From Candidatus Nealsonbacteria bacterium (GTDB lineage Bacteria > Patescibacteriota > Minisyncoccia > Minisyncoccales > CAZKCU01), in assembly GCA_047456305.1 (NCBI GenBank), contig CP179888.1:445307-509306 (forward strand): DNA of 64,000 nucleotides, in the 5' to 3' direction. The translations under genes were made by a program, and so were the position numbers. The notes beneath the pieces were generated by a model. That model did no database searches. It saw only the letters and a program-made list of their open reading frames with translations, and was not told the origin of the DNA. Shown in pieces: positions 3,365 to 22,911 of the stretch (the first letter of the stretch is position 1; every line of letters begins with the position of its first letter).

Positions 3365-3376
3365 ATTATTTAAATA

Positions 3377-3973: not shown

Positions 3974-4676
3974 TTTTATCTTAAAAGTGAAAAATCTAAA
4001 TGTGGAATTGGATAACGAAAAGGTTATTGGTAATTTATCTTTTCAGGTAAAAAAAGGAGAAATTTTGACAATTTTAGGACCAAACGGAGCAGGAAAAACC
4101 GTATTGCTAAAAGCCCTGTTAGGAATTCTTCCTTATCAAGGAACGATTGAGTGGAAAGCAGGAATTAAGCTGGGCTACGTTCCTCAACGACTGCCGTTTA
4201 TAAAAGATATCCCGCTAAGTGTTAGAGAATTTTTAAAGTTAAAAATTAATTCAGAAGATGCAATAAAAGAAGTTTTGAAACTGGTCGGCATTAAAAATGA
4301 AATTTTAGAGAAGAGAATAGACGAGCTCTCTTCAGGCCAGTTTCAAAGAATACTGGTTGGTTGGGGATTATTAGGTAGTCCCCAAGTTTTGTTATTTGAT
4401 GAACCAATGGCTGGAATTGATATTTCAGGTCAGGAATCTATTTATGACCTTTTAAAAAATTTACAAAAAGAAAAGGGTTTTACTATTTTATTAGTTTCTC
4501 ATGATTTAAGCGTTGTTTATAAATTTTCTTCAAATGTTCTATGTCTTAATAAAAAAGTTTTATGCTATGGCCCGCCGCAAGAGATTTTGACCCCGGAAAA
4601 TTTAACCCGGCTTTATGGAGGCGAAATAAAATTTTATCAACACTATCACCGATATGGAAATTCATTATCTTCTTAG
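3963..4676 (+). CDS. metal (Zn/Mn-type) ABC transporter ATP-binding protein
   Basis: Walker A GPNGAGKT, signature LSSGQFQR, Walker B LLLFDEP; followed by a ZnuB-like permease. Confidence 0.75.
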   Translation: MNNNFILKVKNLNVELDNEKVIGNLSFQVKKGEILTILGPNGAGKTVLLKALLGILPYQGTIEWKAGIKLGYVPQRLPFIKDIPLSVREFLKLKINSEDAIKEVLKLVGIKNEILEKRIDELSSGQFQRILVGWGLLGSPQVLLFDEPMAGIDISGQESIYDLLKNLQKEKGFTILLVSHDLSVVYKFSSNVLCLNKKVLCYGPPQEILTPENLTRLYGGEIKFYQHYHRYGNSLSS

Positions 4677-5421
4677 TTTAATAGTTGGAATTTTTATCGG
4701 AGCTGCATCCGGCTACCTGGGTTCTTTAATGTTGTCAAAAAGAATGGCTTTGGTAGCTGGTCCTCTCGGCCATTTAACTTTACCGGGAATTGCCTTGGCT
4801 CTTATTTACGGCTTTGATGTTTCTTTAGGCGCTTTCCCTTTTGTTATCTTGGGAATAATTGTGATTTGGCTGTTTGAGATGAGAACAAAATTGCCAATGG
4901 AGGCCTTAACAGCCATTATTTTTGCTTCCGGCGTAGCTGTCGCTTTTTTGTTTTTACCAATTGCCCAAGCCGAAACTGCCTTAGTTGGCGACATTTCTCA
5001 GGTAAGTTTTTGGGATGGAGTGATTTCCATCTTTTTGTGCCTTTCTCTCTTTTTAGTAATAAGAAAAATTTATCCGAAAATGACTCTAATAAGCATTTCT
5101 GAAGATTTAGCCAAAGTTGAAGGAATAAATATTAAAAAATATAATTTTATTTATTTAGCAGCAATTGCTATAATTGTGGCTTTGGGAGTAAAAATAGTTG
5201 GCGGTCTTTTAACCGCAGCTTTAGTAGCCATTCCTGCCGCTACGGCCAGAAATTTAAGCAAAAATCTTTCTCAGTATACTTTTGGAGGAATGATAATTGG
5301 GAGTTTAAGTTGTCTTTTGGGTATTTTACTTTTTAAACTAACCGGATTTCCGGCCGGTCCTTTAGTCATTTTAACTGCTACCTTCTTTTTCTTAATTTCT
5401 TTAATTTTTAAGAAAAAATAA
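4654..5421 (+). CDS. metal ABC transporter permease (ZnuB-like)
   Basis: polytopic membrane ORF overlapping the preceding ABC ATPase gene. Confidence 0.7.
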   Translation: MEIHYLLSLIVGIFIGAASGYLGSLMLSKRMALVAGPLGHLTLPGIALALIYGFDVSLGAFPFVILGIIVIWLFEMRTKLPMEALTAIIFASGVAVAFLFLPIAQAETALVGDISQVSFWDGVISIFLCLSLFLVIRKIYPKMTLISISEDLAKVEGINIKKYNFIYLAAIAIIVALGVKIVGGLLTAALVAIPAATARNLSKNLSQYTFGGMIIGSLSCLLGILLFKLTGFPAGPLVILTATFFFLISLIFKKK

Positions 5422-8211: not shown

Positions 8212-8363
8212 ATGAAAGTCAGAACTAAAAATTTCAGCTTTTTTATTTTAGGAGTTTTGTTTTCTCTAAATATTTTAGCCTGGATTGCAGTTTATAATTT
8301 GAGTAAGCCCCAACTTCTCGTGGTTAACTTTTTTGATGTTGGGCAAGGTGATGCTATCTTTAT
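8212..8363 (+). pseudogene. 5' fragment of a ComEC/Rec2-like MBL-fold gene, interrupted by the element
   Basis: TM helix then VNFFDVGQGDAIFI. After ATCTTTAT the frame runs into 8 unrelated codons and a stop at 8394. Confidence 0.8.
8356..8363. other. attL core (ATCTTTAT)
   Basis: identical to 20563-20570; lies at the point where homology to MBL/ComEC proteins breaks. Confidence 0.7.
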
Positions 8364-8453
8364 TGAATGCTCTATGCTGGAATGCGGAATTTGAAGAAAT
8401 AATCAGAGTTTGAAACGCTTGACCCTTTGCCATTAAATTATTAAGCTAAAATA

Positions 8454-8612
8454 ATGGAAGAAAAAAGAGCCAGAAATTTAGAAATAATTAAAATGCGAAG
8501 GAAGAAAATCACCCTCGCTGAAATTGGAAAAGAATATAAAATAAGCCCTGCGAGGGTTTGGTATGTAGTAAAAAATACAAGGAGAAAGTTAAGAATAGAA
8601 AAGAGGACTTGA
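8454..8612 (+). CDS. 52-aa HTH regulator (sigma-70 region-4/LuxR-like)
   Basis: hand-translated MEEKRARNLEIIKMRRKKITLAEIGKEYKISPARVWYVVKNTRRKLRIEKRT; paralog of 14778-14954. Confidence 0.5.
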   Translation: MEEKRARNLEIIKMRRKKITLAEIGKEYKISPARVWYVVKNTRRKLRIEKRT

Positions 8613-8636
8613 CTTGAATTTTGTAAATGTTAAAAT
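8609..8636 (+). promoter_or_regulatory. sigma-70-like promoter upstream of the rep leader
   Basis: TTGACT, 16 nt spacer, TAAAAT. Confidence 0.45.
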
Positions 8637-8669
8637 AGAAGAAGAAAATAAAAATAAATATAGCGATTA

Positions 8670-8748
8670 TTGAGGTTTGGATAGAGAGACCTCAAGTCCA
8701 AAATAAGAATAAGAATAAAAAAATTGCTGGACTTGAGGTTTTTGTTTT
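8670..8748 (+). promoter_or_regulatory. mutually exclusive hairpins / attenuator-like terminator in the rep leader
   Basis: TTGAGGT(8670-76)/ACCTCAA(8689-95) competes with CCTCAAGTCC(8690-99)/GGACTTGAGG(8729-38), the latter followed by TTTTTGTTTT. Confidence 0.4.
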
Positions 8749-8864
8749 GAAAGAAATGAAGAAAATGAAAAAACCAAAACTCATTATTCAAACAATAAAA
8801 TCCTCCCAAAGAGAGTGGGTAGATTTTATTGATAAAATTTTAAATTGGAAACCAAATAAAGAAA

Positions 8865-10157
8865 ATGATAGAAAAAAAAGAAAATAGAAGTTCATCAAGT
8901 TCCTCATCAAGCTCAAGTTCCAGTGGTTCAATTCAAGAATTAAAAGAAGAATTAAAGAGAACCAAAGAAGAATTAGAAAGAATCAAAATTGAAAAAAAAG
9001 GCAAAGAGGTTGGAGGAGTGCTTTCTAAAAAATTCCACAAACCTATAAGACAGATAGCTAAAACAGGAAAGATGACCTATCGGGAAAAAGAGAAAACGAA
9101 GGAGGGCAAGCTCTACAAAGAGAGAAAATTCTCAATAAGCAGAGAGAAGAGTTTGACTTTGAGCTTTCCTGTTTTTAATTTAGAAAAACTGAAATTAAAA
9201 AATCCTAATTTAGATGTTGATGGACAGCGAGCTATATTTTGGATAACCGGACAAATGAAAAGGCAAAAAACCATAGCACCAGTTTTTACAAAAGAAGAAT
9301 TTTTGAGGGGGCTTGGTTTCTCTAAAAAACAGATAAGGCAGGGCGGTTATTATTCTGACAAAGCGTCTGACATTCTTCAAAACTTGTGGGACAACGAATA
9401 TGTTTTTGAAGATGAAAAAGGAATGATTCTACAATTAAGAATTCTGAAAGCTATAAAAAGACCAAAAGGAAAAGGCAAGAAAGGGGACTTGATAAAGTTA
9501 GGGGTGAATGATTTAATCGTCCCTCAACTGGTGATAGCTGGGACTTTAGACCCGAAGCTCTTGGCAAAAAGTCCCTATGTTTCTTATCCCGCCAAAATCT
9601 ATCAGGACAGAAGTTTGAGAGATGACGAGTTCAAGTTTTTGATTTATCTGTGCGGGATACAGGGGTTTGACAAATTCTATTCCATAAAAGCGACAAGCAT
9701 TCTAAAAGAAGCCGGCTGTTCAACAAAAACAGAAGCAAGAAAAAAAGACCGCAGGGAAATGCTTAATCGTCTTTTAGAGAAGGCAAAGGCAAAGGAACTC
9801 ATACAGGGTTGGAAGGTTGAAAAGGAGGATCAGGGTTTTGAAGAATGGAGGGTTGTATTGAGCTTGCCACCGCGAAAGAGAAAGCAACTGCCACAATCCG
9901 AGCTAAACAAAGAAGCGAATGAGCTTATAGAGGAAATCTTAAGGTGGGTTAAGCAGTGGGAAAAGATTGAGGGATATGAAATAACTTTTTCTGAAAAAGA
10001 AAGAAGGAAGTTCTTGGGCGATTGCGTAAAAAGATTAGGCATAGAAAGGGTGGAAGAGCTGTTTGACATAGAGAGGCAATCGCTTTACCCCAACGCTCTA
10101 CAATTTTTAACACAAGAGCTGTCTGCTGAATTACAGATAAAAGGATTGGATTATTGA
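8865..10157 (+). CDS. candidate replication initiator (Rep) of the element
   Basis: 430-aa orphan ORF with poly-Ser and coiled-coil N-terminus; its stop overlaps the first of five iterons. No family recognised by eye. Confidence 0.4.
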   Translation: MIEKKENRSSSSSSSSSSSSGSIQELKEELKRTKEELERIKIEKKGKEVGGVLSKKFHKPIRQIAKTGKMTYREKEKTKEGKLYKERKFSISREKSLTLSFPVFNLEKLKLKNPNLDVDGQRAIFWITGQMKRQKTIAPVFTKEEFLRGLGFSKKQIRQGGYYSDKASDILQNLWDNEYVFEDEKGMILQLRILKAIKRPKGKGKKGDLIKLGVNDLIVPQLVIAGTLDPKLLAKSPYVSYPAKIYQDRSLRDDEFKFLIYLCGIQGFDKFYSIKATSILKEAGCSTKTEARKKDRREMLNRLLEKAKAKELIQGWKVEKEDQGFEEWRVVLSLPPRKRKQLPQSELNKEANELIEEILRWVKQWEKIEGYEITFSEKERRKFLGDCVKRLGIERVEELFDIERQSLYPNALQFLTQELSAELQIKGLDY

Positions 10158-10331
10158 TGATTTGGTCAGGAATTGTTGATGATCTGGTCAAAATTATTGA
10201 TGATTTGGTCAAAATTATTGATGATTTGGTCAGGATTTTTGCCTCCTGATTTTTGGAAAAAATAAGGATATTTTCCAGATTTTGTTCTTAAAAATAGTGG
10301 AAATATGCCAAAATTACTGATGATTTGGTCA
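10153..10331 (+). repeat. iteron array (5 direct copies of RTTGATGATYTGGTCA)
   Basis: copies at 10153, 10175, 10196, 10217 (21-22 bp spacing) and 10316; followed by AT-rich DNA with AAGTATAAA and GAACGAACG duplications. Confidence 0.8.
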
Positions 10332-10628
10332 GAGAAAAAACAGCAGACCAAAGGAAAGTATAAAGTAAAGTATAAAAAACTTTACAAAGTTTATTAAAGT
10401 TTTTGTTTTATTTTTTTAAAAGCGAACGAACGGGCTTATAAGAAACGAACGAGGCAACAAAGATAGTTAGCTAAAAATTCCGAAAACCCTATATGAATCA
10501 TAAAGAGTTTTCTTCCGATGTCGGAAAATACAAACAAAAAAAAAGCTGTTCTTACAAACAGCACAAAAAAACACTTTTTTTAGTTTTAATGCTTAATTTC
10601 TTTTTAACACGATTTTAAAAAAGGTCAA

Positions 10629-10644
10629 GTGAACCCAGGTTCAC
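10629..10644. promoter_or_regulatory. palindromic operator-like site GTGAACC-ca-GGTTCAC
   Basis: 15 nt identical to 14595-14609; sits just upstream of the PC4-like gene promoter. Confidence 0.45.
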
Positions 10645-10685
10645 AACTCTTGACCCTTCTTGTCAAGAGTATAGAATTAAAATCA

Positions 10686-10922
10686 ATGCCTGAAAATAAC
10701 AAGGAAAAAGTCGTTGGAGAGATAGCCAAAAATTCCCTTGAGAAAGTGATTATTTCGCTTCGTGAGTATCGGGAAAGGCAGTTGGTAGACATTCGCACTT
10801 ATTATCAGAATGACAAAGGCGAATGGCTTCCTACCAAGAAGGGAATTAGCTTGAATTCCGAGAATTATCCCGAGCTGAAACAAGGAGTTTTGGCTTTAGA
10901 GGAAGCAATTAAAGATTTTTAA
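10686..10922 (+). CDS. PC4/p15-like (YdbC-like) ssDNA-binding protein
   Basis: SLREYRERQLVDIRTYYQNDKGEWLPTKKGISL matches the PC4 family core. Start moved to the ATG at 10686, which follows a TTGACC-16-TAGAAT promoter. Confidence 0.6.
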   Translation: MPENNKEKVVGEIAKNSLEKVIISLREYRERQLVDIRTYYQNDKGEWLPTKKGISLNSENYPELKQGVLALEEAIKDF

Positions 10923-10925
10923 CTT

Positions 10926-11102
10926 ATGCGAATTTTTAAGACCAAAACGCCACCGGTAAAAGTTGAAAAAGAGGAAATAAAAAAGCCCCAACACAAGAGC
11001 GCATTTTTCTTTGTTGACCGATATTATCGCCAGAAAGAGTTTGAAGAAATGTTGGAAAAGGACATAGATGCGAAGGCGTTTTTTGGAGATAGTAAGTTTT
11101 AA
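10926..11102 (+). CDS. hypothetical 58-aa protein
   Basis: hand-translated MRIFKTKTPPVKVEKEE...; starts 3 nt after the upstream stop. Confidence 0.3.
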   Translation: MRIFKTKTPPVKVEKEEIKKPQHKSAFFFVDRYYRQKEFEEMLEKDIDAKAFFGDSKF

Positions 11103-11114
11103 TCTTGCGTTTTT

Positions 11115-11309
11115 ATGGCAAAATTTTTAATAACAATTCTTATCTTGATTCTGCTTTTTCTCTGGTTTTACTTTATGGCACAAAAGAAGAAAGAGCCAGA
11201 AACAAAAAAACAAGTTTTTCATTCTGAAGCTGAACGAAAATTTTTCCAAGTTCCGAGTGAGGAGGAGCTGGAACAAAGAGAAGAACAAGAAAAAAAGAAA
11301 ACTATTTAA
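11115..11309 (+). CDS. hypothetical small membrane protein
   Basis: ORF track; one N-terminal TM helix and an acidic tail. Confidence 0.4.
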   Translation: MAKFLITILILILLFLWFYFMAQKKKEPETKKQVFHSEAERKFFQVPSEEELEQREEQEKKKTI

Positions 11310-11345
11310 AAGGTCGCAGGAAACAATAAAATCGTCAAACTAATT

Positions 11346-11522
11346 ATGCCAACAATTAAGGAATTATTAGAACAAATCAAGGATAAAGCTGACGAAGTTG
11401 AAGAAAAACTGGAGGGAAAATACCCCCCACAAGGATACCCGACACCTCCGAAGGGCTATAAGCCACCAAAAGACGAGGTTGAAAAAGATGACGAAGAGGA
11501 AGAAGAGGAATCAGAAGAATAA
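11346..11522 (+). CDS. hypothetical 58-aa acidic protein
   Basis: hand-translated MPTIKELLEQIKDKADEVEEKLEGKYPPQGYPTPPKGYKPPKDEVEKDDEEEEEESEE; AAAAGGTCG motif ~30 nt upstream. Confidence 0.3.
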   Translation: MPTIKELLEQIKDKADEVEEKLEGKYPPQGYPTPPKGYKPPKDEVEKDDEEEEEESEE

Positions 11523-11574
11523 ATAAAAAAGAGATTCTAAAAGGTTGAATAATTAAAAATTAAGTTTTAAAAAA

Positions 11575-12063
11575 ATGGGAACATTCGTAAATTTTAGAAC
11601 CGAAAAAGACCCCGAAGAAAAATCTTTAGCACACCATTTAAAAATGGGAAAAAAGCGACAAGGCACTTCTCCTCCAGAGGAGCTTTACAAATTGGAAAAT
11701 CACCGAGAGGAAAAAAAAGTTGAACAAGCAAAAAATTTTGACCAGATAATAAATTCCCAAATGGGAGTCAGATTTGGGCAAGATGAGAAAATTTATCACA
11801 ATTTGTCAGAACTGAAAGTTGATCAAAAACTGAAAAGGGATTTTGGACTTTCCGAATTTGATGATAGCAATGAAGTGGAATTATCTGATTCCGAAGAAAA
11901 AATTGATGAGCAAAAATTTGAAAGGCAAACTGGTTTCAATTTGGCAGAATTAGAAGAAGATGAGCAACAAAAACAAAACTTGATGGAGGATTTTCAAGAA
12001 TTAGAAGACGAAAAGTTATGGGGTTCGCCAAGCGATTTGGAGGTTGAATTTGAAGAGGGATAA
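11575..12063 (+). CDS. hypothetical acidic protein
   Basis: ORF track; AAAAGGTTG motif upstream. It contains one inverted iteron-like TGACCAGAT sequence. Confidence 0.45.
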   Translation: MGTFVNFRTEKDPEEKSLAHHLKMGKKRQGTSPPEELYKLENHREEKKVEQAKNFDQIINSQMGVRFGQDEKIYHNLSELKVDQKLKRDFGLSEFDDSNEVELSDSEEKIDEQKFERQTGFNLAELEEDEQQKQNLMEDFQELEDEKLWGSPSDLEVEFEEG

Positions 12064-12080
12064 GAATTCAATGAGAGAGT

Positions 12081-12109
12081 TTGAAAAGCAGTTAAAATTC
12101 GCCTATAAA
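12081..12109 (+). promoter_or_regulatory. sigma-70-like promoter at the start of the ORF-free region
   Basis: TTGAAA, 17 nt spacer, TATAAA. Confidence 0.45.
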
Positions 12110-12115
12110 TAATAT

Positions 12116-12546
12116 ATCAATCCTTAAGAATTAAATTATACCCGGTTCAATCGCTGTTTCTAACTCTCGCCCGAGTTAAAAGCTAAAGAATTTCACCCAA
12201 GCTTTAAGTTTGGGTGAGAGTTGGAGGCAGTTTTGAGAGCCAGATGTTTTGACAGGGGGTTGGGTTTGACCACCTCTTCAAAATTGTCCTTTTACTCTGG
12301 CTTTCTAAACTGCCACGCGCAACTCACCAAAACAAAGTCCCATTCAAAAAATGGGGCTTTCTTCCTATTTCCCCTGACGGGAAATAATTGATTTATTCCC
12401 CATCACGGGAAATGGGCTTTCTTCCTCAAAGGGGACACCCGGGTGGCTTCAAAAACACTTCTCAAGCCATTTTAAGGCACTTCTGGGCTTATTTTAAGGA
12501 AGAAAGGATACAATCCCCGAGAAGCCCCTTTAAAAGGGCTTTTTAT
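12116..12546 (+). ncRNA. candidate ~430-nt structured non-coding RNA of the element
   Basis: no ORF on either strand; end-to-end pairing UCCUUAA(12121)/UUAAGGA(12495); long imperfect helix 12218-12243/12297-12325; several local hairpins; weak terminator at 12522-12546. Confidence 0.35.
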
Positions 12547-13190
12547 ATATAGAAACATAATTTAAAAGACCTGTATCAGACAGAGGTTGACAAACCAATG
12601 TAAAAGTGTGCTTATATTTGGTATTGGCTGACTAACATTACATAGAGGAGGACGGGGAGTTTCATTATTTAATTCTCTGTTTTTTTTATGGCTTTTGTTT
12701 TAAATGTCTATTCCTTGTAAGCTACGAACTATTGAATACAGCACAAAAACAAAAGATGTTTTTGGCTTGTTTCTGGTCTTTGTTTCTCGGCATTTGAGAT
12801 TGGCGTTTCTGGGCTTCGGGTCGTGGCTATGAGCTTTCACTTAATATCCTTTGTTTTTAAATATCAATAGCTCTGTGCTCTGTGCTTTGGTATCCCTGTT
12901 ATTTGCCTTTTAGTATTATTAAGCGCCAAAAAAAAACAAGCTTGGCGGATACAAAAGAGCCCATTTTATTATTGGGCTTAACTGCTCAACCCACTTAACA
13001 GCTCATACTCAATTTGTTCTTAACGAATGAATGCGCGAAATTGCTCAATAAAATGTTTTTTGAAAAATCCTGATTTTTGAAAACAAGGTTCAAAAGTTTT
13101 TTAAGAATTAAATTCAAATGGTGGAACTATGTTTCAAAAATGGTCTGTATTTTAGCCCTGAAAGTTATCCACAATTAAGCTCATTTGTGC

Positions 13191-13219
13191 TTGACAGAGT
13201 GCTTGGCTTTTGCTAAAAT
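13191..13219 (+). promoter_or_regulatory. near-consensus sigma-70 promoter
   Basis: TTGACA, 17 nt spacer, TAAAAT; preceded by TTATCCACAATTA at 13165-13177. Confidence 0.55.
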
Positions 13220-13374
13220 AGAGGTGTAAAGAGAGTTCATTTTAAAGGTCTATTTCAACAGCTTGCGAGATTTTTATTTTGGTATATTATTAAAATTGGT
13301 GGTTCTTCATTGAATCGCTAAAGTCCCTCGTTCTGCTCGCAAGCTGTCGGGGGGCTTTTAATTAAAATAAAACT

Positions 13375-13524
13375 ATGACTATTTCAGATTTCGTAAAAGA
13401 TTTAAAAAACGAAGGACTAAACAGAAAGGAGGCATTGGAGATTTTTGAAAGCTGGCTTGACGAGAATATCGGACTTGTCTTAAGAGATGAGGCGATCAAG
13501 TTATTTGAAAAACACTATGAGTAA
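13375..13524 (+). CDS. hypothetical 49-aa protein
   Basis: hand-translated MTISDFVKDLKNEGLNRKEALEIFESWLDENIGLVLRDEAIKLFEKHYE. A 36-aa hydrophobic ORF (13517-13627) overlaps its end. Confidence 0.3.
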   Translation: MTISDFVKDLKNEGLNRKEALEIFESWLDENIGLVLRDEAIKLFEKHYE

Positions 13525-13715
13525 AAAAATCCTTTATTGGGTCGGTCTGATTTTACTGGCAATGATTATCTTTCCCTTTTTCTACGGCTTCATCTACCTG
13601 TTTCTGTTGGCTGATTTAATTATTTAGTCCCTTCACTCCGTCAGCACCTTTGGTGCTGATCGGTGAGAGGATTAAAACTTAATGGCTGATGTCAGGGTCA
13701 GCACTTTAAAAAGCT

Positions 13716-13916
13716 ATGGCTAAAATAAACATTTACTTTCAGGATTTAAATGAAAATGCCCAACAGGAGGTATGGCAAGCTGTAAAAGAAGAATTAGAGG
13801 AAGATATTAAAAATGAGATTGAGTTTCAACCTGATTTAGATCCTCAAACTATTAAATCTGAAACGATTGAAAATCATATAAACTGCCACAATTTTGCCAA
13901 CGAGTTTGTAATATAA
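13716..13916 (+). CDS. hypothetical acidic 66-aa protein
   Basis: ORF track. Confidence 0.4.
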   Translation: MAKINIYFQDLNENAQQEVWQAVKEELEEDIKNEIEFQPDLDPQTIKSETIENHINCHNFANEFVI

Positions 13917-13991
13917 CCAATCAATTCAGCCCTTCAATATCCTGATATTTGGAGGTCTGAAATTGCTTGATTATCAGCTAACAAAAGAACT

Positions 13992-14198
13992 ATGCTAATT
14001 TTCTATACCCAAGTTTCAAATCCCGATAGCGAAAAAAAGAAAAGGTTTTTGAGAATGAAACAAGCCATAGCACGGGAGTTTAAAAGAATGAAAAAGTTTG
14101 ATGAAAAAATGGTAAGCTTGGGACATAAGAAACCGGAAAAACTGATTATGAAATGCGGGCAGAACTTTCTGGCAATCCACCAGTTTAGGAGCGCATAA
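13992..14198 (+). CDS. hypothetical basic 68-aa protein
   Basis: ORF track; Lys/Arg-rich. Confidence 0.35.
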   Translation: MLIFYTQVSNPDSEKKKRFLRMKQAIAREFKRMKKFDEKMVSLGHKKPEKLIMKCGQNFLAIHQFRSA

Positions 14199-14594
14199 TT
14201 TTGCCAATTCTTTTTGGGTCGGTGAGCTTTGAATTCTTGAAGGAGCTTATCTGTTTTAAAAAAACAGAGGAGAAAATCAAAGCGAACCGATGAGGTATGA
14301 GGATTTAGACGGAGGCAAAAATGAAAAAGGGGTTTAGCAAAAGTTAGACCTACCGAACCATAGGAACAGAGGGATATTCTTTCAAGAAAAAACTAACTAT
14401 CCCAAAGCTCTTAATCCGATTGATACATAATTTTTGTTTCAAATCTTTCCAGTAGTATTTGCCGAAGTTTAAAGAGCTGTATCTCTAATAATGGTAAGAT
14501 CCATTCCGAGTAGTCGGTCAAACTATGCTTTTACAATTTCAAGAGTTGGGAGAGCAAAAGAGTTTTTGTTAGTTTTTGCTCTTTTGCTGTCCTT

Positions 14595-14610
14595 GTGAAC
14601 CCAGGTTCAA
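14595..14610. promoter_or_regulatory. second copy of the GTGAACCCAGGTTCA operator-like site
   Basis: 15-nt identity with 10629-10643; ~135 bp upstream of the HTH gene promoter. Confidence 0.45.
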
Positions 14611-14743
14611 TTATCACTATTGACCGACCAAAACCCCATTTTTAAGGATTTAGCCCAAAAACAACGCACCAGATTGCGTTTTAAGAGGATTTGAGGGCTG
14701 GGCGGTGGTTTGATACCCGGTTGCCTGCCTTGATTTTGGGGGC

Positions 14744-14771
14744 TTGACACTATCTCTTGACTTGATAGAAT
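14744..14771 (+). promoter_or_regulatory. sigma-70-like promoter giving a probably leaderless HTH mRNA
   Basis: TTGACA, 16 nt spacer, TAGAAT, ending 6 nt before the ATG at 14778. Confidence 0.5.
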
Positions 14772-14777
14772 GAAATA

Positions 14778-14954
14778 ATGAAAGAAAATATAAAACGAAA
14801 AAAGAAGATTTTGGAATTAAGGGTGAAGGGTTATCAGTTGAAAGAGATCGGGGAAGCTCTTGGAATCTCAAAGCAGAGGGTTCACCAGATTATTAGGCAG
14901 TTTCAAAAAGACCAGCACGATTTGAGGCGCTTAAAACGGAAGAAGATATTATGA
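14778..14954 (+). CDS. 58-aa HTH regulator (sigma-70 region-4/LuxR-like)
   Basis: hand-translated MKENIKRKKKILELRVKGYQLKEIGEALGISKQRVHQIIRQFQKDQHDLRRLKRKKIL. Confidence 0.55.
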   Translation: MKENIKRKKKILELRVKGYQLKEIGEALGISKQRVHQIIRQFQKDQHDLRRLKRKKIL

Positions 14955-15101
14955 CAAAAAAAAAGCCCCCCAGCAGAGAGGAGAGCTAATTGAAAATAGT
15001 TTAATTTAAGCTAATCCAACTCAAAGAAAAATAAGTCAATAAAAATAAAGTCAAAAAATAGTAATTTAATTCACACTTTTATTTTACAAATTTTAAAAAC
15101 T

Positions 15102-16073
15102 ATGTCAAACAAATCTTTAATAATTCCTACAAGTTCAATCAATAATGACCTGATAAATCCTGATGCTTTTAAAAATCAGGAAATCTTGAGTATTGTCATT
15201 GATCCAAAAAAGACCTTCAATTACTTGGACATTTCCTCCGGAAGCCGGGCTGACTACAAATACCGGTTAGGTTTGTTTCTCAACTTTATGAGAAATAAGT
15301 CATTGAGTTTGAATTGCCTGTTGGAATACAAAAGGTATTTGAAGAACTTGATAAATTACAGCACCGCTACAAAAAACCATTACCTCCTTGTGGGCTTGAA
15401 GCTCCTGCGCGAATATCACAGGCAGGGAATTTTAAAAAGAGATATAACTTCCAACATAGAACTTTTTAAAGAAGAAAAGAATAAAATGAAGGTTGAGGAA
15501 TTTAATGAGCAAGAGATGACCAAAATCCTGAATGCCTTAAAGGAATTGCCGAACACAAAAGAGAATAGTCGCCTGAAAGCGATGATGAGCTTGCTGATAT
15601 TTCAGGGCTTGAGATTGATAGAGCTGACAAGGATTGATTACCCTGCTGATGTTGATTTTGGAAATAAAATCATTCAAATTCAAGGAAAGGGTAAGGAATA
15701 CAAACAACCGGTAGATTTACACCCCAAAACTATTGCCGAGCTGAAAAAGTATGTTTCAACCAATGGAATTAAAAGCGGGTCATTGTTCTTTTGTAAGAGC
15801 AACCGCAACCTCCACCAGAAAATAACCACCTCTGGAATTAGGAAGATTATCAAGAAATTTTTGAAGAGTTTGGGAATAGACAGGAATATCCACGCATTCA
15901 GGCACTCCTTTTGCGGTATGCTGGCTCTCAACAAAAACCTGACTACGCTTGATATGGCGCAGTTCTCACGACACTCAAATCCTGCTCAATTACAGGCGTA
16001 TATTGACAGAAGAAAATTCAAATCCAAAATTCCCGAATTCTATAAATGCTTTAGAGGGTGGAATATGAGATGA
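15102..16073 (+). CDS. tyrosine recombinase / integrase (XerC/D-like)
   Basis: GLRLIEL (Arg), HAFRHSF (His-x-x-Arg) and RHSNPAQLQAY (His...Tyr) catalytic motifs. Confidence 0.85.
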   Translation: MSNKSLIIPTSSINNDLINPDAFKNQEILSIVIDPKKTFNYLDISSGSRADYKYRLGLFLNFMRNKSLSLNCLLEYKRYLKNLINYSTATKNHYLLVGLKLLREYHRQGILKRDITSNIELFKEEKNKMKVEEFNEQEMTKILNALKELPNTKENSRLKAMMSLLIFQGLRLIELTRIDYPADVDFGNKIIQIQGKGKEYKQPVDLHPKTIAELKKYVSTNGIKSGSLFFCKSNRNLHQKITTSGIRKIIKKFLKSLGIDRNIHAFRHSFCGMLALNKNLTTLDMAQFSRHSNPAQLQAYIDRRKFKSKIPEFYKCFRGWNMR

Positions 16074-16126
16074 TTGAACCAAGTTCACTTAAAAGGTCGT
16101 TTAATCAAAATTAACTAACTAATAAA

Positions 16127-16489
16127 ATGAAAGAAGAAAAAGAGATTTTACAAGAGATATTAAAATTAGAAAAGGAAGAAAAAGAAGTTGATGAAAAAAT
16201 GGAAAGTGGAAGAGTTGAAAAATTGAATATATTAAAAGGAAAATTAAATGCTTTAAGGTGGGCATTGGGAACAGGTTTTCCTACCATAGACCCATATAAG
16301 GGAATGAAAACAAACAAACAGGTCAGCCACAAAATCAAGGAAATGTCAGCAATGAAGTTCCAGATTGAACCTCTTGAATGTATGAAAGATGCCCTTCGCT
16401 GGGTTTTAGGAGAAACAGATGAAACATATTTTTTTAATGATTGGTTCAAGGAACAACTGAAAGTAGCTGAAAGGGAAAAGGATAATTAA
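16127..16489 (+). CDS. hypothetical coiled-coil protein
   Basis: ORF track; internal repeat ALRWALG / ALRWVLGE; AAAAGGTCG motif 27 nt upstream. Confidence 0.5.
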   Translation: MKEEKEILQEILKLEKEEKEVDEKMESGRVEKLNILKGKLNALRWALGTGFPTIDPYKGMKTNKQVSHKIKEMSAMKFQIEPLECMKDALRWVLGETDETYFFNDWFKEQLKVAEREKDN

Positions 16490-16583
16490 CTTTTACTGAA
16501 TTCCTGATCTGGAAATCGGGGGTTCAGATAAGAGCTGATTTTAAAAGGTCGCAAGAAAATAAAAATTAAAATAAAATTATATT

Positions 16584-16772
16584 ATGGTTAAAGAATTAGA
16601 CAAGCGAAGATTAGAACTTTTGAATTCTTTAAATGAATATTTTTTGAATAACAAAGGAGAATTGAAGGTGTTGATAAATTTTCTTGATGAATCAGCAACG
16701 GGGTGGCGGGATACTCCCTCACCGCTTTTAGAAACCTTGGTTGCTCTGGCAAAGGGATTGGAGTTAAAATAG
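16584..16772 (+). CDS. hypothetical 62-aa protein
   Basis: ORF track; AAAAGGTCG motif 33 nt upstream. Confidence 0.4.
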   Translation: MVKELDKRRLELLNSLNEYFLNNKGELKVLINFLDESATGWRDTPSPLLETLVALAKGLELK

Positions 16773-16825
16773 AGGTAGAGATAAAATTTCAAAGGTCGTT
16801 TAATAAATTAAAATAAAATAAAATT

Positions 16826-17455
16826 ATGGGAACAGAAGAAGAAAAGAAAAAAATTGAGGAAGAAGAAAGAATACGAGCAGAAGCAAGGGTTAAGGCAGAA
16901 AAAGAGCTTAAGCAAAAAGAACAAAAGAAAAAGGGTATAGGTTGTTTGGTTGTTTTAGGGCTTATTATACTTTTTGTCGTTATTATTTCTATCGGTGGCA
17001 AAGAGGATAAAAAAGCAGAACCTACCTTAACCGAACCTCCTGCTAAATCAGAACCAGTACCTCTTACTCCTGAACAAAAACTGGAATCGGCTTATATCCA
17101 ATCTTTCACAGCGATCAACAAAAATGTCGTTGAGGCATCAAATTCTTTAGGTAATCTGGTTGGAGTTAAATCTCCTATCTTATGGACAGAAGAAGAAATA
17201 ATGCTGGTGGCATTCTCAACCGTAATGCTTGAAGAATCCTACACACAGGCGAAAGAGCTTGAACCTCCCGAAAAGTTTGAAGCCGTCCATTCCCTTTTCC
17301 TATCCGGATTGTCCAAATATGCCGAAGCTATGCCACTTTTGAGAGATGGCATAGATTATTCCAATGCTGATAAAATCAACCAATCAACCGATCTTCTTAT
17401 TGAAGGAGTGAAATTTTACGAACAAGCCACAGAGAAATTAAAACTTCTTCAATAA
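16826..17455 (+). CDS. hypothetical membrane-anchored protein
   Basis: ORF track; charged N-terminus, one TM helix, extracytoplasmic domain; AAAGGTCG motif upstream. Confidence 0.5.
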   Translation: MGTEEEKKKIEEEERIRAEARVKAEKELKQKEQKKKGIGCLVVLGLIILFVVIISIGGKEDKKAEPTLTEPPAKSEPVPLTPEQKLESAYIQSFTAINKNVVEASNSLGNLVGVKSPILWTEEEIMLVAFSTVMLEESYTQAKELEPPEKFEAVHSLFLSGLSKYAEAMPLLRDGIDYSNADKINQSTDLLIEGVKFYEQATEKLKLLQ

Positions 17456-17538
17456 ATTTACGAACCCAAATAAAACCAGAGACCGGATAAGCAAAAAAAA
17501 AGGTCGTTTAGTAAATTAAATTAAAATAAAATAAAATT

Positions 17539-17787
17539 ATGAGACCTATTTTTTGGGGCTTAATCTGTTTCCTGATTGGAATGGTTGGCTGGATTGCTTT
17601 TAGTGTTATAGGTGGTCTTGGAGAAGGAATTACTGGAGAAGCTGATCCTACATTCAAAGCTTTGGTGAGCTTTTTTGGAATGATATTCTTTTTCAGCTTG
17701 CCGGTGGCAATTATCTTTGAGATTATTCGCTGGGCAAGAAAGAGAAAGAGAAGGAAAAGAGAAGGAGAGCTAAACTTGAAAAATTAA
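17539..17787 (+). CDS. hypothetical two-TM membrane protein
   Basis: ORF track; AAAAGGTCG motif upstream. Confidence 0.5.
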   Translation: MRPIFWGLICFLIGMVGWIAFSVIGGLGEGITGEADPTFKALVSFFGMIFFFSLPVAIIFEIIRWARKRKRRKREGELNLKN

Positions 17788-17797
17788 AATTCTAACT

Positions 17798-18322
17798 ATG
17801 GCAAAAGAAAGATTAAGCATTTTACAAAAAGCCATTATCACTACCTTAAGAGCTTTAGATGAAGTAGAATATAAAACTAATAAAAAGCTATTCAAAAAGA
17901 AAGCCAAACAACCTCCATACTGGCACAAATTAAGAAAGACAACTGGTGATGGAAGTATGGTGGGATCAGGTTGGATTACAGATAGGGGTTTGAAATTCTA
18001 TGTAGAGAAATGTTTGAAAGCACACTACAAACTTCCGGAATTAGATTTTAGCAATTTAGACAAAGTCAATGCTCAAGAGGAAGAAAGAATGAAGCACCCC
18101 AAATACAATTATTTTGACCATAAGCCGACAGGAAAAGTTAGTCAGCGACTTGGCTATAATATCTATCGTTCCTCCTCTTTTGATATTTCATTCAGCAGGA
18201 GTTTAAAGAGCTTATGGGAAAAGAAGTTTATAGAATGTGATTTTATTAAAAATTGGAGGAATAAGGTAGCTCAAATAAGAACAATAAAACTAACAGAGAA
18301 GGGTCTTAATGTTAAGATGTGA
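17798..18322 (+). CDS. hypothetical protein, MAKERLS paralog 1
   Basis: N-terminus MAKERLSILQKAII shared with the next ORF; C-terminal KLTEKGLNV is suggestive of a winged-helix domain. Confidence 0.5.
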   Translation: MAKERLSILQKAIITTLRALDEVEYKTNKKLFKKKAKQPPYWHKLRKTTGDGSMVGSGWITDRGLKFYVEKCLKAHYKLPELDFSNLDKVNAQEEERMKHPKYNYFDHKPTGKVSQRLGYNIYRSSSFDISFSRSLKSLWEKKFIECDFIKNWRNKVAQIRTIKLTEKGLNVKM

Positions 18323-18367
18323 GCTTCCATAATTTAACAATAAGAAATTTGAAATAGAATTGTAAAT

Positions 18368-18823
18368 ATGGCAAAAGAAAGGTTAAGCAAACTTCAGAAG
18401 TGGATAATAAGGAATTGTAATCGCTGTAAATTCTCTGGCGGGGAAGCAACTGCTATGAGTCGCAAAGACATATTGGGGTTTTTTGCCTTTGATTATGAAG
18501 CCAATGAAGAGTATGAAGAAAGAAAAAACAGAGCAGAGGCAACCATAAGCAGGAGTATAAAAAACTTAAGGTGTAAGGGTTTTATAGAAGAGTTTAGTCG
18601 TGCTATCAAAAGAGGATTTTATATGAAAAAGGAAAATGGTATCTCTATAATGGAAGAACAAATAAAGGAAACTGGTTGTTTGGATAAAAAAGAAGGAAGA
18701 GAAGAAATAAAACAATCTTTTGGGAATTCAAGATTACCTGAATATACAAAATTGATTGAATTGACTGATAAAGGAATAAAAAAAAGGAAAGAACTCTTAA
18801 AGTTAAGTTCTGACAATAGCTAA
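18368..18823 (+). CDS. hypothetical protein, MAKERLS paralog 2
   Basis: N-terminus MAKERLSKLQKWII; C-terminal ELTDKGIKKRKELL. Confidence 0.5.
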   Translation: MAKERLSKLQKWIIRNCNRCKFSGGEATAMSRKDILGFFAFDYEANEEYEERKNRAEATISRSIKNLRCKGFIEEFSRAIKRGFYMKKENGISIMEEQIKETGCLDKKEGREEIKQSFGNSRLPEYTKLIELTDKGIKKRKELLKLSSDNS

Positions 18824-18910
18824 AACTTAACAATAAGAATTAGTTGATATTCTGAAACCCTGTTAAAATAGAAAAAGAGAAAAAAATAAAAAAGTTAATA
18901 AGAAAAAATT

Positions 18911-20572
18911 ATGACCAAAGTAGCAATATACATCCGGGTCTCAACCCAGCGTCAAGAAAAAGAAGAAACAGAAAAAACTCAACTATCTAAATTAAAAGAA
19001 TATTGTAAAAAAAATGACTATCAGATAGTCAAAGAATATTCTGATGTTTGTTCAGGTGCTTATCTATCAAGAACCGCCTTAAACCAATTAAGAGAAGATG
19101 TGAAGAAAGGAATCTTTGATGTTATTTGTGTTTATGCTCTTGATAGATTATCCAGAAAATTAGGACATCAAATAGCATTGCTTGATGAATTTGAAAAAGA
19201 AGCAAAAGTTAAAGTGGAAAGTTTGGAAGAAAAATTTGAAGATAGTCCTGAAGGAATGTTAAACCGAAATATGAGAGGAGCTTTCGCTGAATATGAAAGA
19301 TATAAAATAGCCAAGCGTCTAATGGACGCAAAATGGAGCAAAGTGAAGGAAAAAAAGCTAATTGGTTGTTATCCTCCTTTCGGCTATACTAATGTTAAAA
19401 AGACAGATGACACGCCGGCTCATTTTCTAATAAACCCAAAAGAAGTTTCAATAGTTAGGTTGATATTTAAGATTTATCTTGAAACAAATAGCACTTATCA
19501 AACAGCTATTCAACTTAAGGAAATGGGAATTAAAGGCAGAGGCAGAGGCAAGGGCAAAAATGGTAAGGACAAGCCGACATCTCTTCACCCAAAAACAATC
19601 CGAGAAATGCTGAAGAATGAATCATACATTGGTAATTGGTATTATGGCAAAACCTATTGTTGCGAGGCAAAGTATCACATTAAAGAGGAAAGGAAGCATA
19701 AAATAACCGGAAGAAAAATTAGACCCAAGTCAGATTGGAAACTGGTGAAAATACCAGAAATTATTGATAAAGAAATTTTTGATAGAGTTCAAGAAAAAAT
19801 GAATAAAAAGAAAAGTGATTATTTAAAACCATCAAAAAAGCATTTTTATCTTTGTCAAAGTTTAATTAAGTGTATTCATTGTAAAAGGACTTATAGTGGT
19901 CATAAGCAAACTAACAGAAAAAGAAAAAAACCTTTCTTCACTTATTATTGTGGGCAAAAATATCCAAGAAGAAATAAGCTTGATGAAGTTGCCTGTCCCT
20001 CAAGGTCAATGGGAAGAGACAGATTGGATAATGCTGTTTGGGATTATGTTAAATCTTTGGTTAGTGATGAGAATAAAGTCAAAAAGGGAATAAAAAAATT
20101 AGCAGAGAAAAGAGAAAAAGATAGGTCATTTAATCAGAAAGTTTATAATTCTCTGATAGCTGAAAAAGGGAAACTGGAAAAAAAGAAGCAGAGATTTATA
20201 GATCTCTATGGCGATGAAAACTTCACTCAAGAAGAGATAGATAATAAAGTTTCAGAAGTCAACAGCTTACAAGAAAATTTGAATAATCAAATAAGAGAAG
20301 TAGAAAAAGAATTTCAAAAGATAGAAAATCTTAAACTAATAGAAAAGGAAATTGAAAAACTTTGTTTTAGATATAAAACTAAAATAAAAAAGAATCCAAG
20401 CCCAGAATTAAAGAAATTTATTGTCAGAAGTTGGATAAAAGAAATAAATATACTTGATGACGGAAGAGTTTTTATCAAAGCAAAATTGCCGGAATTAGAA
20501 GAAATTTCAAGGGAGAAATTAGAATTTCCCTCTCAAAAGCGTATTCCAGCACAAACTCCTCAATCTTTATAG
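18911..20572 (+). CDS. large serine recombinase (integrase)
   Basis: VAIYIRVSTQRQ (catalytic Ser), YALDRLSR, recombinase domain, Cys-rich zinc-ribbon region (CIHC...C...C) and C-terminal coiled coil; ends in attR. Confidence 0.9.
   Translation: MTKVAIYIRVSTQRQEKEETEKTQLSKLKEYCKKNDYQIVKEYSDVCSGAYLSRTALNQLREDVKKGIFDVICVYALDRLSRKLGHQIALLDEFEKEAKVKVESLEEKFEDSPEGMLNRNMRGAFAEYERYKIAKRLMDAKWSKVKEKKLIGCYPPFGYTNVKKTDDTPAHFLINPKEVSIVRLIFKIYLETNSTYQTAIQLKEMGIKGRGRGKGKNGKDKPTSLHPKTIREMLKNESYIGNWYYGKTYCCEAKYHIKEERKHKITGRKIRPKSDWKLVKIPEIIDKEIFDRVQEKMNKKKSDYLKPSKKHFYLCQSLIKCIHCKRTYSGHKQTNRKRKKPFFTYYCGQKYPRRNKLDEVACPSRSMGRDRLDNAVWDYVKSLVSDENKVKKGIKKLAEKREKDRSFNQKVYNSLIAEKGKLEKKKQRFIDLYGDENFTQEEIDNKVSEVNSLQENLNNQIREVEKEFQKIENLKLIEKEIEKLCFRYKTKIKKNPSPELKKFIVRSWIKEINILDDGRVFIKAKLPELEEISREKLEFPSQKRIPAQTPQSL
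20563..20570. other. attR core (ATCTTTAT)
   Basis: identical to 8356-8363; MBL homology resumes immediately. Confidence 0.7.
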
Positions 20573-21279
20573 TAAGCCCTCAGAGGCATCAGATTCTGAT
20601 TGATGGAGGACCGGGGCCTGCTATTTTAGAAAAATTGGCAACTGAGATGCCTTTTTATGATCGCTCTTTGGATTTAATTGTTTTAACTCACCCTGAACAT
20701 GATCACATTGCAGGTTTAATTGAGGTTCTAAAAAGATACAAAGTAGATTATATTTTGTGGACTGGCATTATTAGAAATACCTCTGAATATGAAGAATGGT
20801 TAAAGACCATTGCCCGAGAGAATGCTCAAATAAAAATAGCTAAAGCTGGCCAGAGAATAATCGCATCGAGAATGGTTCTTGATATTTTACATCCTTTTGA
20901 AAATCTTGAGGACAAAAAAGTCAAAAATAGCAATAATACCTCTATAATTTCCCATCTAATTTTTGGTAATAACTCTTTTTTATTCACTGGCGATGCTTAC
21001 AAATCAGTAGAGAAAAAACTTATTGAAAGCAAGACCAATATTGATTCTGATGTTTTAAAAGTCGGTCATCATGGGAGTAAAACTTCAAGTGCAAAAGATT
21101 TTATTGAAAAAGTATCTCCGGCAATTGCTGTAATTCAATGTGGCAAAAACAATCCTTATGGTCATCCCCGCCCTGAAACTCTTGAAACTTTAGCCAAGTA
21201 TGATATAAAAATTTTAAGAACTGATTTAGATGGCGACATAAAAATAATTTCCGACGGCACAAAAATAAAAATAAAATAA
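20563..21279 (+). pseudogene. 3' fragment of the ComEC/Rec2-like MBL-fold gene
   Basis: open frame reads IFIVSPQRHQILIDGGPGPAILEKL...LTHPEHDHIAGL...GDA...HHGS. The ORF-track start at 20635 is an artefactual TTG. Confidence 0.8.
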
Positions 21280-22839: not shown

Positions 22840-22911
22840 TCGGGGCGCTGAGAATCGAACTCAGATCACAAGACCCCCAGCCTTGCATACTAACCGTTGT
22901 ACTACGCCCCG
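22840..22911 (-). tRNA. tRNA-Pro (anticodon GGG)
   Basis: hand-folded cloverleaf: acceptor CGGGGCG/CGCCCCG, D stem GTAC/GTAT, anticodon stem CAAGG/TCTTG with loop CTGGGGG, T arm CTGAG-TTCGATT-CTCAG, discriminator A; no encoded CCA. Confidence 0.85.

Follow-up and report, generated by a model that had tools for sequence, protein, structure and literature searches.

In attenuation leaders of the pT181/pIP501 type, an external factor decides between an antiterminator and a terminator. TIGR arrays, described from phages and from candidate phyla radiation (CPR) bacteria, consist of 36-nt units with two alternating repeats of 8–12 nt and 9-nt spacers, usually in 5–15 copies beside a Nop-domain Tas protein (PMC12045711). 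Here we analyse a gene-free stretch of 1.3 kb (positions 12064–13374) in a 64,000-nt window of a Candidatus Nealsonbacteria chromosome, located inside a mobile element. A sequence-only reading had proposed large non-coding RNAs akin to GOLLD and ROOL. The stretch is indeed non-coding and carries structured RNA elements, but the proposed architecture, the promoter and the GOLLD/ROOL analogy appear to be wrong, and a GOLLD/ROOL-like reading is unsupported. We lean towards a patchwork control region of an integrated plasmid-like element, composed of a structured 3′-end module (RNA-A), a conserved spacer, and a promoter with an attenuator leader.

The comparison relies on relatives of the element, which are very rare: in 5.8 billion clusters, the 430-aa protein and the 162-aa protein of the element each have two to three homologues. 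L001 (5 kb, Logan), found via these two proteins, carries the whole region with 90.8% identity. L003 came from a homologue (73%) of the 162-aa protein and has short motifs in common, RNA-A being absent. L007 (JGI Ga0307928_10002172), found via an integrase homologue (51% protein identity), contains a 1.3-kb gene-free gap, the right two-thirds of which are colinear with window positions 12650–13380 (blastn and three-way alignment). To judge from these alignments, the 1.3 kb is not one RNA but falls into three or more units whose conservation histories differ.

The longest open reading frame (ORF) between 12064 and 13715, counting both strands, comprises 56 aa (12221–12391, TTG start), in agreement with the earlier statement that none reaches 60 aa. 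All small ORFs in the stretch are broken in L001 or L007, which rules out conserved small ORFs as its explanation. The visible structure was likewise borne out. Segment 12110–12550 has a minimum free energy (MFE) of −160.3 kcal/mol, with z −8.3 on the + strand and z −7.7 on the − strand. In a window-wide fold scan of 424 segments of 300 nt on both strands (mean z −0.72, sd 1.55), the top rank fell within it, at 12201–12500(+) (z −8.9, MFE −115.9). The remainder, 12550–13374, which takes in the spacer, reaches z −3.8 (+) and +0.1 (−); the + strand exceeds the − strand in stability over 12550–13190, the leader and 14199–14600. Six terminator-like hairpins with T-rich tails were found against 2.2 expected, five of them in 12334–12546, all on the + strand.

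The leader at 13191–13374 is, as predicted by comparative folding, an attenuator with mutually exclusive antiterminator and terminator, supported by covariation. Of the promoter matches in the region, that of P2, the promoter of the leader, is the best. P2 is kept in L001 and, as TTGACT-17-TGcTATTAT, in L007, where a second copy lies at 2026–2054. The antiterminator helix P1 and the terminator T exclude each other because the loop of T holds the 3′ arm of P1 (Table 1). P1 forms 12 of 12 pairs in the window, L001 and L007, with the two outer pairs changed on both sides in L007, and the P1 form is the MFE structure in all of them. Compared with its L007 counterpart (AGCCGTTAG/CTAACGGCT), T shows three double-changed pairs and three that vary on one side only. 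Jointly, P1 and T have 97% of cells paired, as opposed to 34–49% in slid controls, and five double-changed pairs. A promoter upstream and a co-oriented gene downstream (ATG 13375) occur in the same order in L001 and L007.

The conserved first cargo behind the leader is a gene for a hydrophobic peptide. L007 encodes a similar peptide right after the leader (3047–3157), and L001 has another hydrophobic peptide of 35 aa in the same place (4931–5038). In the window, a 49-aa ORF (13375–13524) is inserted between leader and peptide gene, the peptide lying 142 nt further on. This ORF is found only in the window; it weakly resembles the N-terminal portion of HU/IHF-type DNA-binding proteins (Pfam PF00216, E 0.021, below threshold). 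In the mechanism that we propose, the default fold of the leader would be the antiterminator, leaving the genes on. A factor that sequesters the 5′ arm GCTTGCGAG would let T form and thus shut off the operon. Candidates for this factor are a protein, or an RNA with the look-alike box CTTGTAAGC at 12714–12722. The leader-controlled operon would begin with the hydrophobic peptide gene and stop before the integrase operon's own promoter.

RNA-A (about 12113–12546, + strand) starts right after a stop codon, has no terminator upstream, and ends in an intrinsic terminator. In MFE and consensus folds, it adopts a chain of five local hairpin domains, H1 to H5, followed by the terminator t1. H1 provides the comparative evidence. 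Its 22 pairs all form in the window and 21 of them form in L001, with four double compensatory changes, five one-sided changes and one break between the two; a transitions-only permutation test yields a p of about 0.011. On the − strand, just 16 (window) and 18 (L001) of the 22 pairs would form. H1 is the sole fast-evolving part of RNA-A, with 24% divergence against about 1% next to it. Selection on + strand RNA structure in the stretch is thus supported, by sequence comparison, for the H1 hairpin and the leader helices.

The other domains are much less variable. Identity between the window and L001 amounts to 94–100% over 12224–12722, compared with 50–90% in neighbouring coding DNA. The long imperfect helix of the sequence-only reading was recovered as H2 (19 nt, 89% complementary), for which covariation is uninformative because the helix is 100% identical in L001. 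The features listed by that reading are present within 1 nt, although several of their interpretations fail. Hairpins TATTTCCC-ctgac-GGGAAATA (12366–12386) and TTCCC-catcac-GGGAA (12399–12416) were both found inside H4, and each coincides with a match of the terminator scan. The direct repeat GGGCTTTCTTCCT occurs twice, at 12354–12366 and 12414–12426, and the terminator proposed at 12522–12546 corresponds to t1, a similar terminator (GAAGCCCCTCGAGTGAGGGGTTTTTG) being present in L007 at about 2090–2125. The local hairpin TCACCCAA/TTGGGTGA, on the other hand, loses two pairs in L001, whereas a competing long hairpin is kept. The supposed end-to-end pairing was found to be a mere 7-nt complement (12121–12127 with 12494–12500, off by one), unused in the MFE and consensus folds.

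H5 contains internal hairpins and a 22-nt tandem repeat (12456–12499) and is present in both the MFE and the consensus folds. When window and L001 are folded as a consensus, the L001 substitutions in H5 fall into a hairpin loop (12459–12462) or unpaired positions; when the window is folded singly, two of them disrupt terminal pairs of helices. Apart from H1, RNA-A has its substitutions in loops, in bulges or at the ends of helices. Of the predicted long-range pairs, L001 keeps neither 12113/12549 nor 12146/12326. At the counterpart position of L007 (1747–2130) we observed an unrelated sequence with z −7.4. RNA-A is most likely a lineage-specific structured cassette, as far as these sequences indicate.

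A promoter at 12081–12109 had been thought to open the region. The hexamers are present (TTGAAA at 12081–12086, a 17-nt spacer, TATAAA at 12104–12109), but they lie inside relic coding sequence: 12071–12112 are the last 13 codons of a Zn-ribbon gene, followed by the stop. L001 encodes an intact topoisomerase-type Zn-ribbon ORF of 66–75 aa (3426/3453–3653; Pfam PF01396, E 2.8e-13) with the same C-terminus, relative to which the window carries a 161-nt deletion. The three nucleotide differences between window and L001 in 12071–12112 are all synonymous, and the −10 hexamer reads TATAAA in the window and TACAAA in L001. A consensus scan did not list the site, because its −10 hexamer lacks the conserved final T. 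Since the putative promoter is a gene end with synonymous-only changes, RNA-A is more likely a 3′-untranslated region (3′-UTR) or terminator module than a separately promoted gene. We postulate that it forms the structured 3′ end of the replication-side operon, which consists of the 430-aa Rep-like gene, iterons, the PC4-like gene and the 162-aa gene. In this position, RNA-A would stop read-through into the next operon and protect the 3′ end of the upstream mRNA, and it may leave a stable 3′-derived RNA.

Table 1 Features of the gene-free stretch and of the surrounding element (window coordinates).
Feature	Position	Strand	Remarks
Relic 3′ end of Zn-ribbon gene	12071–12112	+	Translates to MREFEKQLKFAYK, then stop; contains the proposed promoter 12081–12109
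Half-site CCGGTTCAAT of palindrome TGAACCCAGGTTCAAT	12142–12151	+	Head of intergenic region
H1, 22-bp hairpin	Arms 12154–12175 / 12208–12230	+	Six G-U pairs
H2, 19-bp imperfect helix	12226–12244/12296–12314	+	Encloses G-rich hairpin at about 12250–12293; in MFE and consensus folds
H3	12334–12360	+	Terminator-like in scan; pyrimidine-rich tail with GGGCTTTCTTCCT; identical in L001
H4	12364–12416	+	One long or two short hairpins; pyrimidine-rich tail with GGGCTTTCTTCCT; identical in L001
H5 domain	12417–12507	+	Closed by CUUUCUUCCU (12417–12426) with AGGAAGAAAG (12497–12506); 93% complementary
t1, intrinsic terminator	12519–12546	+	Hairpin 12526–12538, then TTTTTAT; identical in L001
Conserved spacer	12550–13190	.	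Common to L007 as sequence islands (three-way alignment, blastn)
Island GAGTTTCATTATTT and T8 run	12657–12688		Spacer
X box CTTGTAAGC	12714–12722		Spacer
Islands AGCACAAAA, TGTTTCT repeats, AGCCCATTTT..AACTGCT, TGATTTTTGA			Further spacer islands
DnaA-box-like AAAGTTATCCACA	13165–13173		Spacer; TTTTCCAC in L007
Promoter P2	13191–13219	+	TTGACA, 17 nt, TGcTAAAAT (extended −10); 11/12 consensus positions
Leader helix P1, antiterminator	13258–13347	+	ACAGCTTGCGAG (13258–13269) with CTCGCAAGCTGT (13336–13347)
Leader terminator T	13320–13362	+	AAAGTCCCTCG (13320–13330) with CGGGGGGCTTT (13348–13358), then U run
Hydrophobic-peptide gene, 36 aa	13517–13627	+	MSKKILYWVGLILLAMIIFPFFYGFIYLFLLADLII; conserved first cargo of leader-controlled operon
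430-aa Rep-like protein	8865–10157		Left part of element
Tandem repeats, 21 nt x3.9	10150–10232		Directly after 430-aa gene
Tyrosine recombinase	15102–16073		Profile scans of element proteins
Large serine recombinase	18911–20572		Adjoins right junction of element

Between RNA-A and the leader lies the conserved spacer. Covariation among the homologues, detected for H1 and the leader helices, gives no net support in these middle 640 nt (three-way alignment, RNAalifold term +0.96). Box counts, those of DnaA boxes among them, are at chance level, with one perfect DnaA box at 13165. The X box is similar to CTCGCAAGC of the leader and able to pair with the 5′ arm of P1. Concerning the micro-repeats that had been pointed out, GCTCTGT is present 2.4 times at 12870–12886, but the GTTTCT type is not enriched window-wide (2 found, 2.3 expected), which rules out GTTTCT repeats as iterons. 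An iteron-type origin in 12064–13374 was also ruled out, as there is no tandem array of at least three copies and the DnaA boxes are at chance. Most likely, the spacer islands would serve as sites in DNA or for protein binding, or else as RNA without structure.

A further DNA motif connects the elements. The half-site CMGGTTCAAY occurs three times in the window against 0.4 expected, and it heads the same intergenic region in the window, L001, L003 and L007. The full 16-nt palindrome TGAACCCAGGTTCAAT is found at 14595–14610 in the window, 1937–1952 in L001, 3153–3168 in L003 and 12159–12174 in L007. It is exact in these four otherwise divergent elements, occurs once per element and always in non-coding DNA, and its position relative to the genes differs. 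Judging by this distribution, palindrome and half-site are probably a protein-binding DNA site or a recombination site.

Several observations weigh against the patchwork control region. RNA-A is represented by two sequences, whose identity outside H1 is about 99%, with one testable helix and a modest p value. Given that the elements are mosaic, recent recombination instead of constraint may account for the near-identity of 12224–12722. RNA-A is equally stable on both strands (−159.7 and −161.2 kcal/mol), which leaves room for DNA-level or minus-strand roles. Furthermore, 430 nt at z −8.9 far exceed the structure required for termination, and the ends of RNA-A and of the other RNAs are those predicted from sequence. 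In the leader, the terminator has only four U's before AAUU, no switch effector was found, and the leader holds neither a leader ORF nor an Rfam aptamer. The pairing between X box and Y (13258–13269) is invariant and hence carries no covariation signal. Duplex-energy scans of the element for trans targets of RNA-A, the X box and the leaders gave none above background.

The folding stability of RNA-A, the most extreme in the window, would also suit a stand-alone, trans-acting large non-coding RNA of a new class, carried by CPR mobile elements as GOLLD and ROOL are by phages and plasmids, with its own promoter at 12081–12109 and a function set by its overall fold. We regard this as unlikely. It is favoured by the defined terminator, by the near invariance of 12224–12546 between elements whose coding genes differ by 10–50%, by the covariation of H1, and by the failure of all known families to match, so that the RNA would be new. 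However, the promoter is weak, with the −10 hexamer differing between window and L001, and sits in a coding relic where all differences are synonymous; local hairpins in a row make up the fold, and L001 breaks its predicted long-range pairs. RNA-A is also missing from L007 and L003, which retain the rest of the region, and it is known from two sequences only, despite scans of IMG/VR, JGI metagenomes, GTDB, INPHARED and PLSDB. The rapid evolution of H1 with pairing kept by compensatory changes could alternatively mark RNA-A as an incompatibility or immunity determinant, in which the structured RNA or an antisense partner would control replication or the attenuators nearby, with the hypervariable H1 setting specificity, in the manner of ColE1 RNA I/RNA II, R1 CopA, the pT181/pIP501 countertranscripts and the P4 CI RNA. 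Related elements do carry non-homologous cassettes at the same position, as in heteroimmune relatives, and attenuator-type leaders occur here and before the Rep-like gene (8610–8750). Yet no conserved minus-strand promoter faces H1, the sole candidate (12162 to 12135) being destroyed in L001; a distance of 2 kb separates RNA-A from the Rep-like gene with its iterons, and RNA-A segments show no above-background complementarity to either leader or to the rest of the element. We consider such a determinant distinctly improbable.

About as doubtful, in our view, is a structure whose role is in the DNA itself, be it a single-strand origin, a signal of the primosome or single-stranded DNA (ssDNA) promoter type, a tyrosine-recombinase site, or a partition or replication site, with the spacer islands as protein-binding sites. 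H1 tolerates G-U and not A-C and pairs better on the + strand in both sequences, T-rich tails follow the hairpins in the direction of transcription, and the iteron-like repeats lie elsewhere, beside the Rep-like gene, in the window and in L007. In addition, DnaA-box counts are at chance, and no relaxase or rolling-circle Rep was recognised. What speaks for a DNA-level role is the equal folding on both strands, implying mostly Watson-Crick palindromes, together with the conserved palindrome family and its half-site at 12142, the perfect DnaA box at 13165 (TTTTCCAC in L007), a PC4-like ssDNA-binding protein encoded nearby, and a spacer without RNA covariation. Finally, the stretch could be mostly decayed or neutral sequence, made of gene remnants and recombination scars, its hairpins being only ordinary terminators. 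One gene remnant is demonstrable (12071–12112), the elements are mosaic, and conservation statistics are weak because the family is tiny. Nevertheless, the top rank among 424 segments is unexpected for decayed sequence, the leader helices covary, and the right part is alignable with L007, whose integrase gene gave no significant nucleotide match by blastn. Decay thus appears very unlikely, and the patchwork control region remains the reading that we adopt.

Outside the 1.3-kb stretch, a second structured segment, RNA-B, lies between a 68-aa ORF and the promoter of the helix-turn-helix (HTH)/integrase genes. It is gene-free over 14199–14600 and extends to about 14780. Homologues occur in L005 (1932–2380), L006 (1284–1719) and L007 (4358–4783), giving four distinct sequences with 72–86% identity. 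The consensus fold comprises 115 pairs with 95.6% of cells paired, arranged in domains 14218–14291 and 14292–14485 and a terminator-like hairpin at 14547–14586. Twenty pairs are changed on both sides, compared with 8.0 ± 2.1 in shuffles (0/500) and 1–3 in slid controls. RNA-B has no Rfam match, and its covariation support exceeds anything inside 12064–13374. By these comparisons, RNA-B is the best-supported candidate for a conserved structured RNA of the element family. RNA-A and RNA-B (14199–14600) could conceivably represent a new class each of large structured non-coding RNA, specific to small CPR/Patescibacteria plasmid-like elements and acting in trans, for example in maintenance, incompatibility or host manipulation, instead of as plain UTR or terminator structure, an idea to which we give little credence at present.

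The window represents bacterial chromosome; its GC content is about 35%, almost every gene lies on the + strand, and the encoded proteins include EF-G, EF-Tu, SecY, RpoA and AlaRS. Both the 162-aa protein upstream of the stretch (100% identity) and the integrase have identical counterparts in a Candidatus Nealsonbacteria MAG. The mobile element of about 12.2 kb (approximately 8367–20574) contains the whole gene-free stretch and splits a ComEC-like metallo-beta-lactamase gene (8212–8394, 20575–21279). The N-terminal ComEC-like part stops with '...DVGQGDAIFIE' near 8367, and the sequence restarts at 20575 with 'SPQRHQILIDGGPG...THPEHDH'. From its gene content and junctions, the element is most likely plasmid-like and integrated in a ComEC-like gene within the genome of a Candidatus Nealsonbacteria (CPR) bacterium; its integration would have been carried out by the large serine recombinase. 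Besides the proteins of Table 1, it encodes a PC4-like protein, a 162-aa protein and small ORFs. Pfam and PHROG scans of the element proteins identified PC4, integrase, resolvase and HTH domains, and neither a relaxase nor a rolling-circle Rep was recognised in these domain scans. The neighbouring ORFs 17798–18322 and 18368–18823 (174 and 151 aa) have the common start motif MAKERLS.LQK.II and look like paralogues.

For the 430-aa protein, a PDB sequence search was empty and the AlphaFold model (pLDDT 46) was too poor to use. The 21-nt repeats after its gene resemble an arrangement of iterons and initiator, which by analogy suggests a replication origin there; 10130–10430 is 97–100% identical between the window and L001. 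The gene is preceded by a promoter-like TTGACT-16-TAAAAT (8610–8637) and a leader (8610–8750) in which TTGAGGT/ACCTCAA competes with CCTCAAGTCCA/TGGACTTGAGG and a T run in a three-segment arrangement. By degree of structure, 8601–8900(+) takes second place among the 300-nt segments of the window (z −8.35); the leader by itself (125 nt) gives z −5.7. This predicted structure looks like a second attenuator. The arrangement is not conserved in L002, the Rep-like protein of which is 86% identical. L002 encodes a 603-aa ParB_N-domain protein (2432–4243) upstream of its Rep-like gene, at the place where the window has its attL junction, and the element backbones are therefore modular.

The L007 element offers a view of the family outside a chromosome. 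Its ends are identical over 127 nt and an independent contig, L012 (Ga0075125_10004551), bridges them; it is therefore a complete circle of 14,917 bp that is free and not integrated. Its genes include one for a tyrosine recombinase and one for a 280-aa protein similar to the PHROG 'DNA topoisomerase', and no capsid genes were recognisable among the genes scanned. Its 481-aa protein shares a homologous C-terminus with the 430-aa protein (62 residues, 35% identity) and is directly followed by a 43-nt x1.9 repeat (11576–11657). As a Rep-like gene with tandem repeats is thus kept in L007, the probable Rep-plus-iteron module lies outside the 1.3-kb region in both elements.

Protein-anchored retrieval from Logan, ENA and JGI identified L001 as the sole other carrier of RNA-A and L007/L008/L012 as the sole distant carrier of the right-hand part. 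L002, L003, L005, L006, L009, L010 and L021–L023 lack the region, or their contigs end before it. Blastn detected no match among INPHARED phages or PLSDB plasmids, and GTDB genomes matched neither the leader pattern nor an RNA-A 20-mer. In IMG/VR, protein-anchored and DNA-pattern scans yielded nothing, or chance matches in coding DNA (L004, L013–L020). The JGI metagenome scan returned only the L007 element and its 99.7% identical copy.

Next to nothing is known of gene regulation or mobile elements in CPR/Patescibacteria, since they are not growable alone. About a fifth of the 12-kb element is non-coding structured sequence, with two attenuator-type leaders and two long segments that belong to no family. 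Should these be functional RNAs, they would rank with the first regulatory RNAs to be described for CPR plasmids, and the promoter, terminators and switch would provide handles for future genetic tools. If RNA-A is merely an oversized terminator, the stretch is an ordinary intergenic control region.

Infernal/Rfam comparison, which had been suggested along with the sequence-only reading, assigned no family to it: with Rfam 15 at gathering thresholds, the window contains only a tRNA at 22840–22911, and a permissive scan of 11900–13800 returned just sub-threshold miRNA and leader noise. Rfam found nothing in L001, L003 and L007, and ARAGORN detected no tRNA or tmRNA in them. RNA-A shares with GOLLD and ROOL that it is large, non-coding, highly structured, located on a mobile element and without obvious function. 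In contrast to them, it has no covariance-model match, no supported multi-domain long-range architecture and no tRNA within about 9 kb of the region, and it is present in two sequences and missing from the closest wider relatives. The test for a long-range fold gave covariation in one local hairpin, from two sequences only. A 'large ornate RNA' is not demonstrable because RNA-A is known from two nearly identical sequences.

That a CPR mobile element has short repeats and hairpins in non-coding sequence recalls TIGR arrays. A TIGR-Tas array was ruled out, given that only two-copy repeats at spacings of 22, 28 and 60 nt are present and Pfam and PHROG scans revealed no Nop domain. Like ColE1 RNA I/RNA II, R1 CopA/CopT and the P4 CI RNA, RNA-A is a structured RNA on a small replicon with a variable yet paired stem-loop, and distant relatives have non-homologous cassettes at the same site. 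Unlike these, it is not beside rep or the origin (the 21-nt repeats lie 1.9 kb upstream), and no antisense promoter or complementary target was found. The minus-strand candidates for a countertranscript promoter, 12162 to 12135 (−35 lost in L001) and 12497 to 12469 (9/12), are not convincing. With regard to type I toxin–antitoxin systems (hok/sok, fst-like), a hydrophobic peptide of 35–36 aa follows the leader, and no antisense promoter or RNA was identified.

By its position, RNA-A is comparable to structured 3′ UTRs, tandem terminators and small RNAs derived from 3′ UTRs, as known from bacteria and phages. It runs from a stop codon through several units of hairpin and pyrimidine tail to a final terminator before the next promoter-containing region. 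With about 430 nt and −160 kcal/mol, it is far larger and more stable than ordinary terminator regions, and one of its helices evolves fast with compensation, which simple terminators do not need. In the leader, no countertranscript promoter, aptamer or leader peptide was found, and there is no sequence or Rfam relationship to the pT181/pIP501 type; moreover, the operon begins with a hydrophobic peptide and not with rep. As in the leaders of pT181 repC and pIP501/pAMbeta1 repR and in riboswitch platforms, antiterminator and intrinsic terminator share a strand (13226–13362), apparently also in the leader of the Rep-like gene (8636–8750). Taken as a whole, the region represents a variation on types of regulatory region already known, found in a lineage without a described example.

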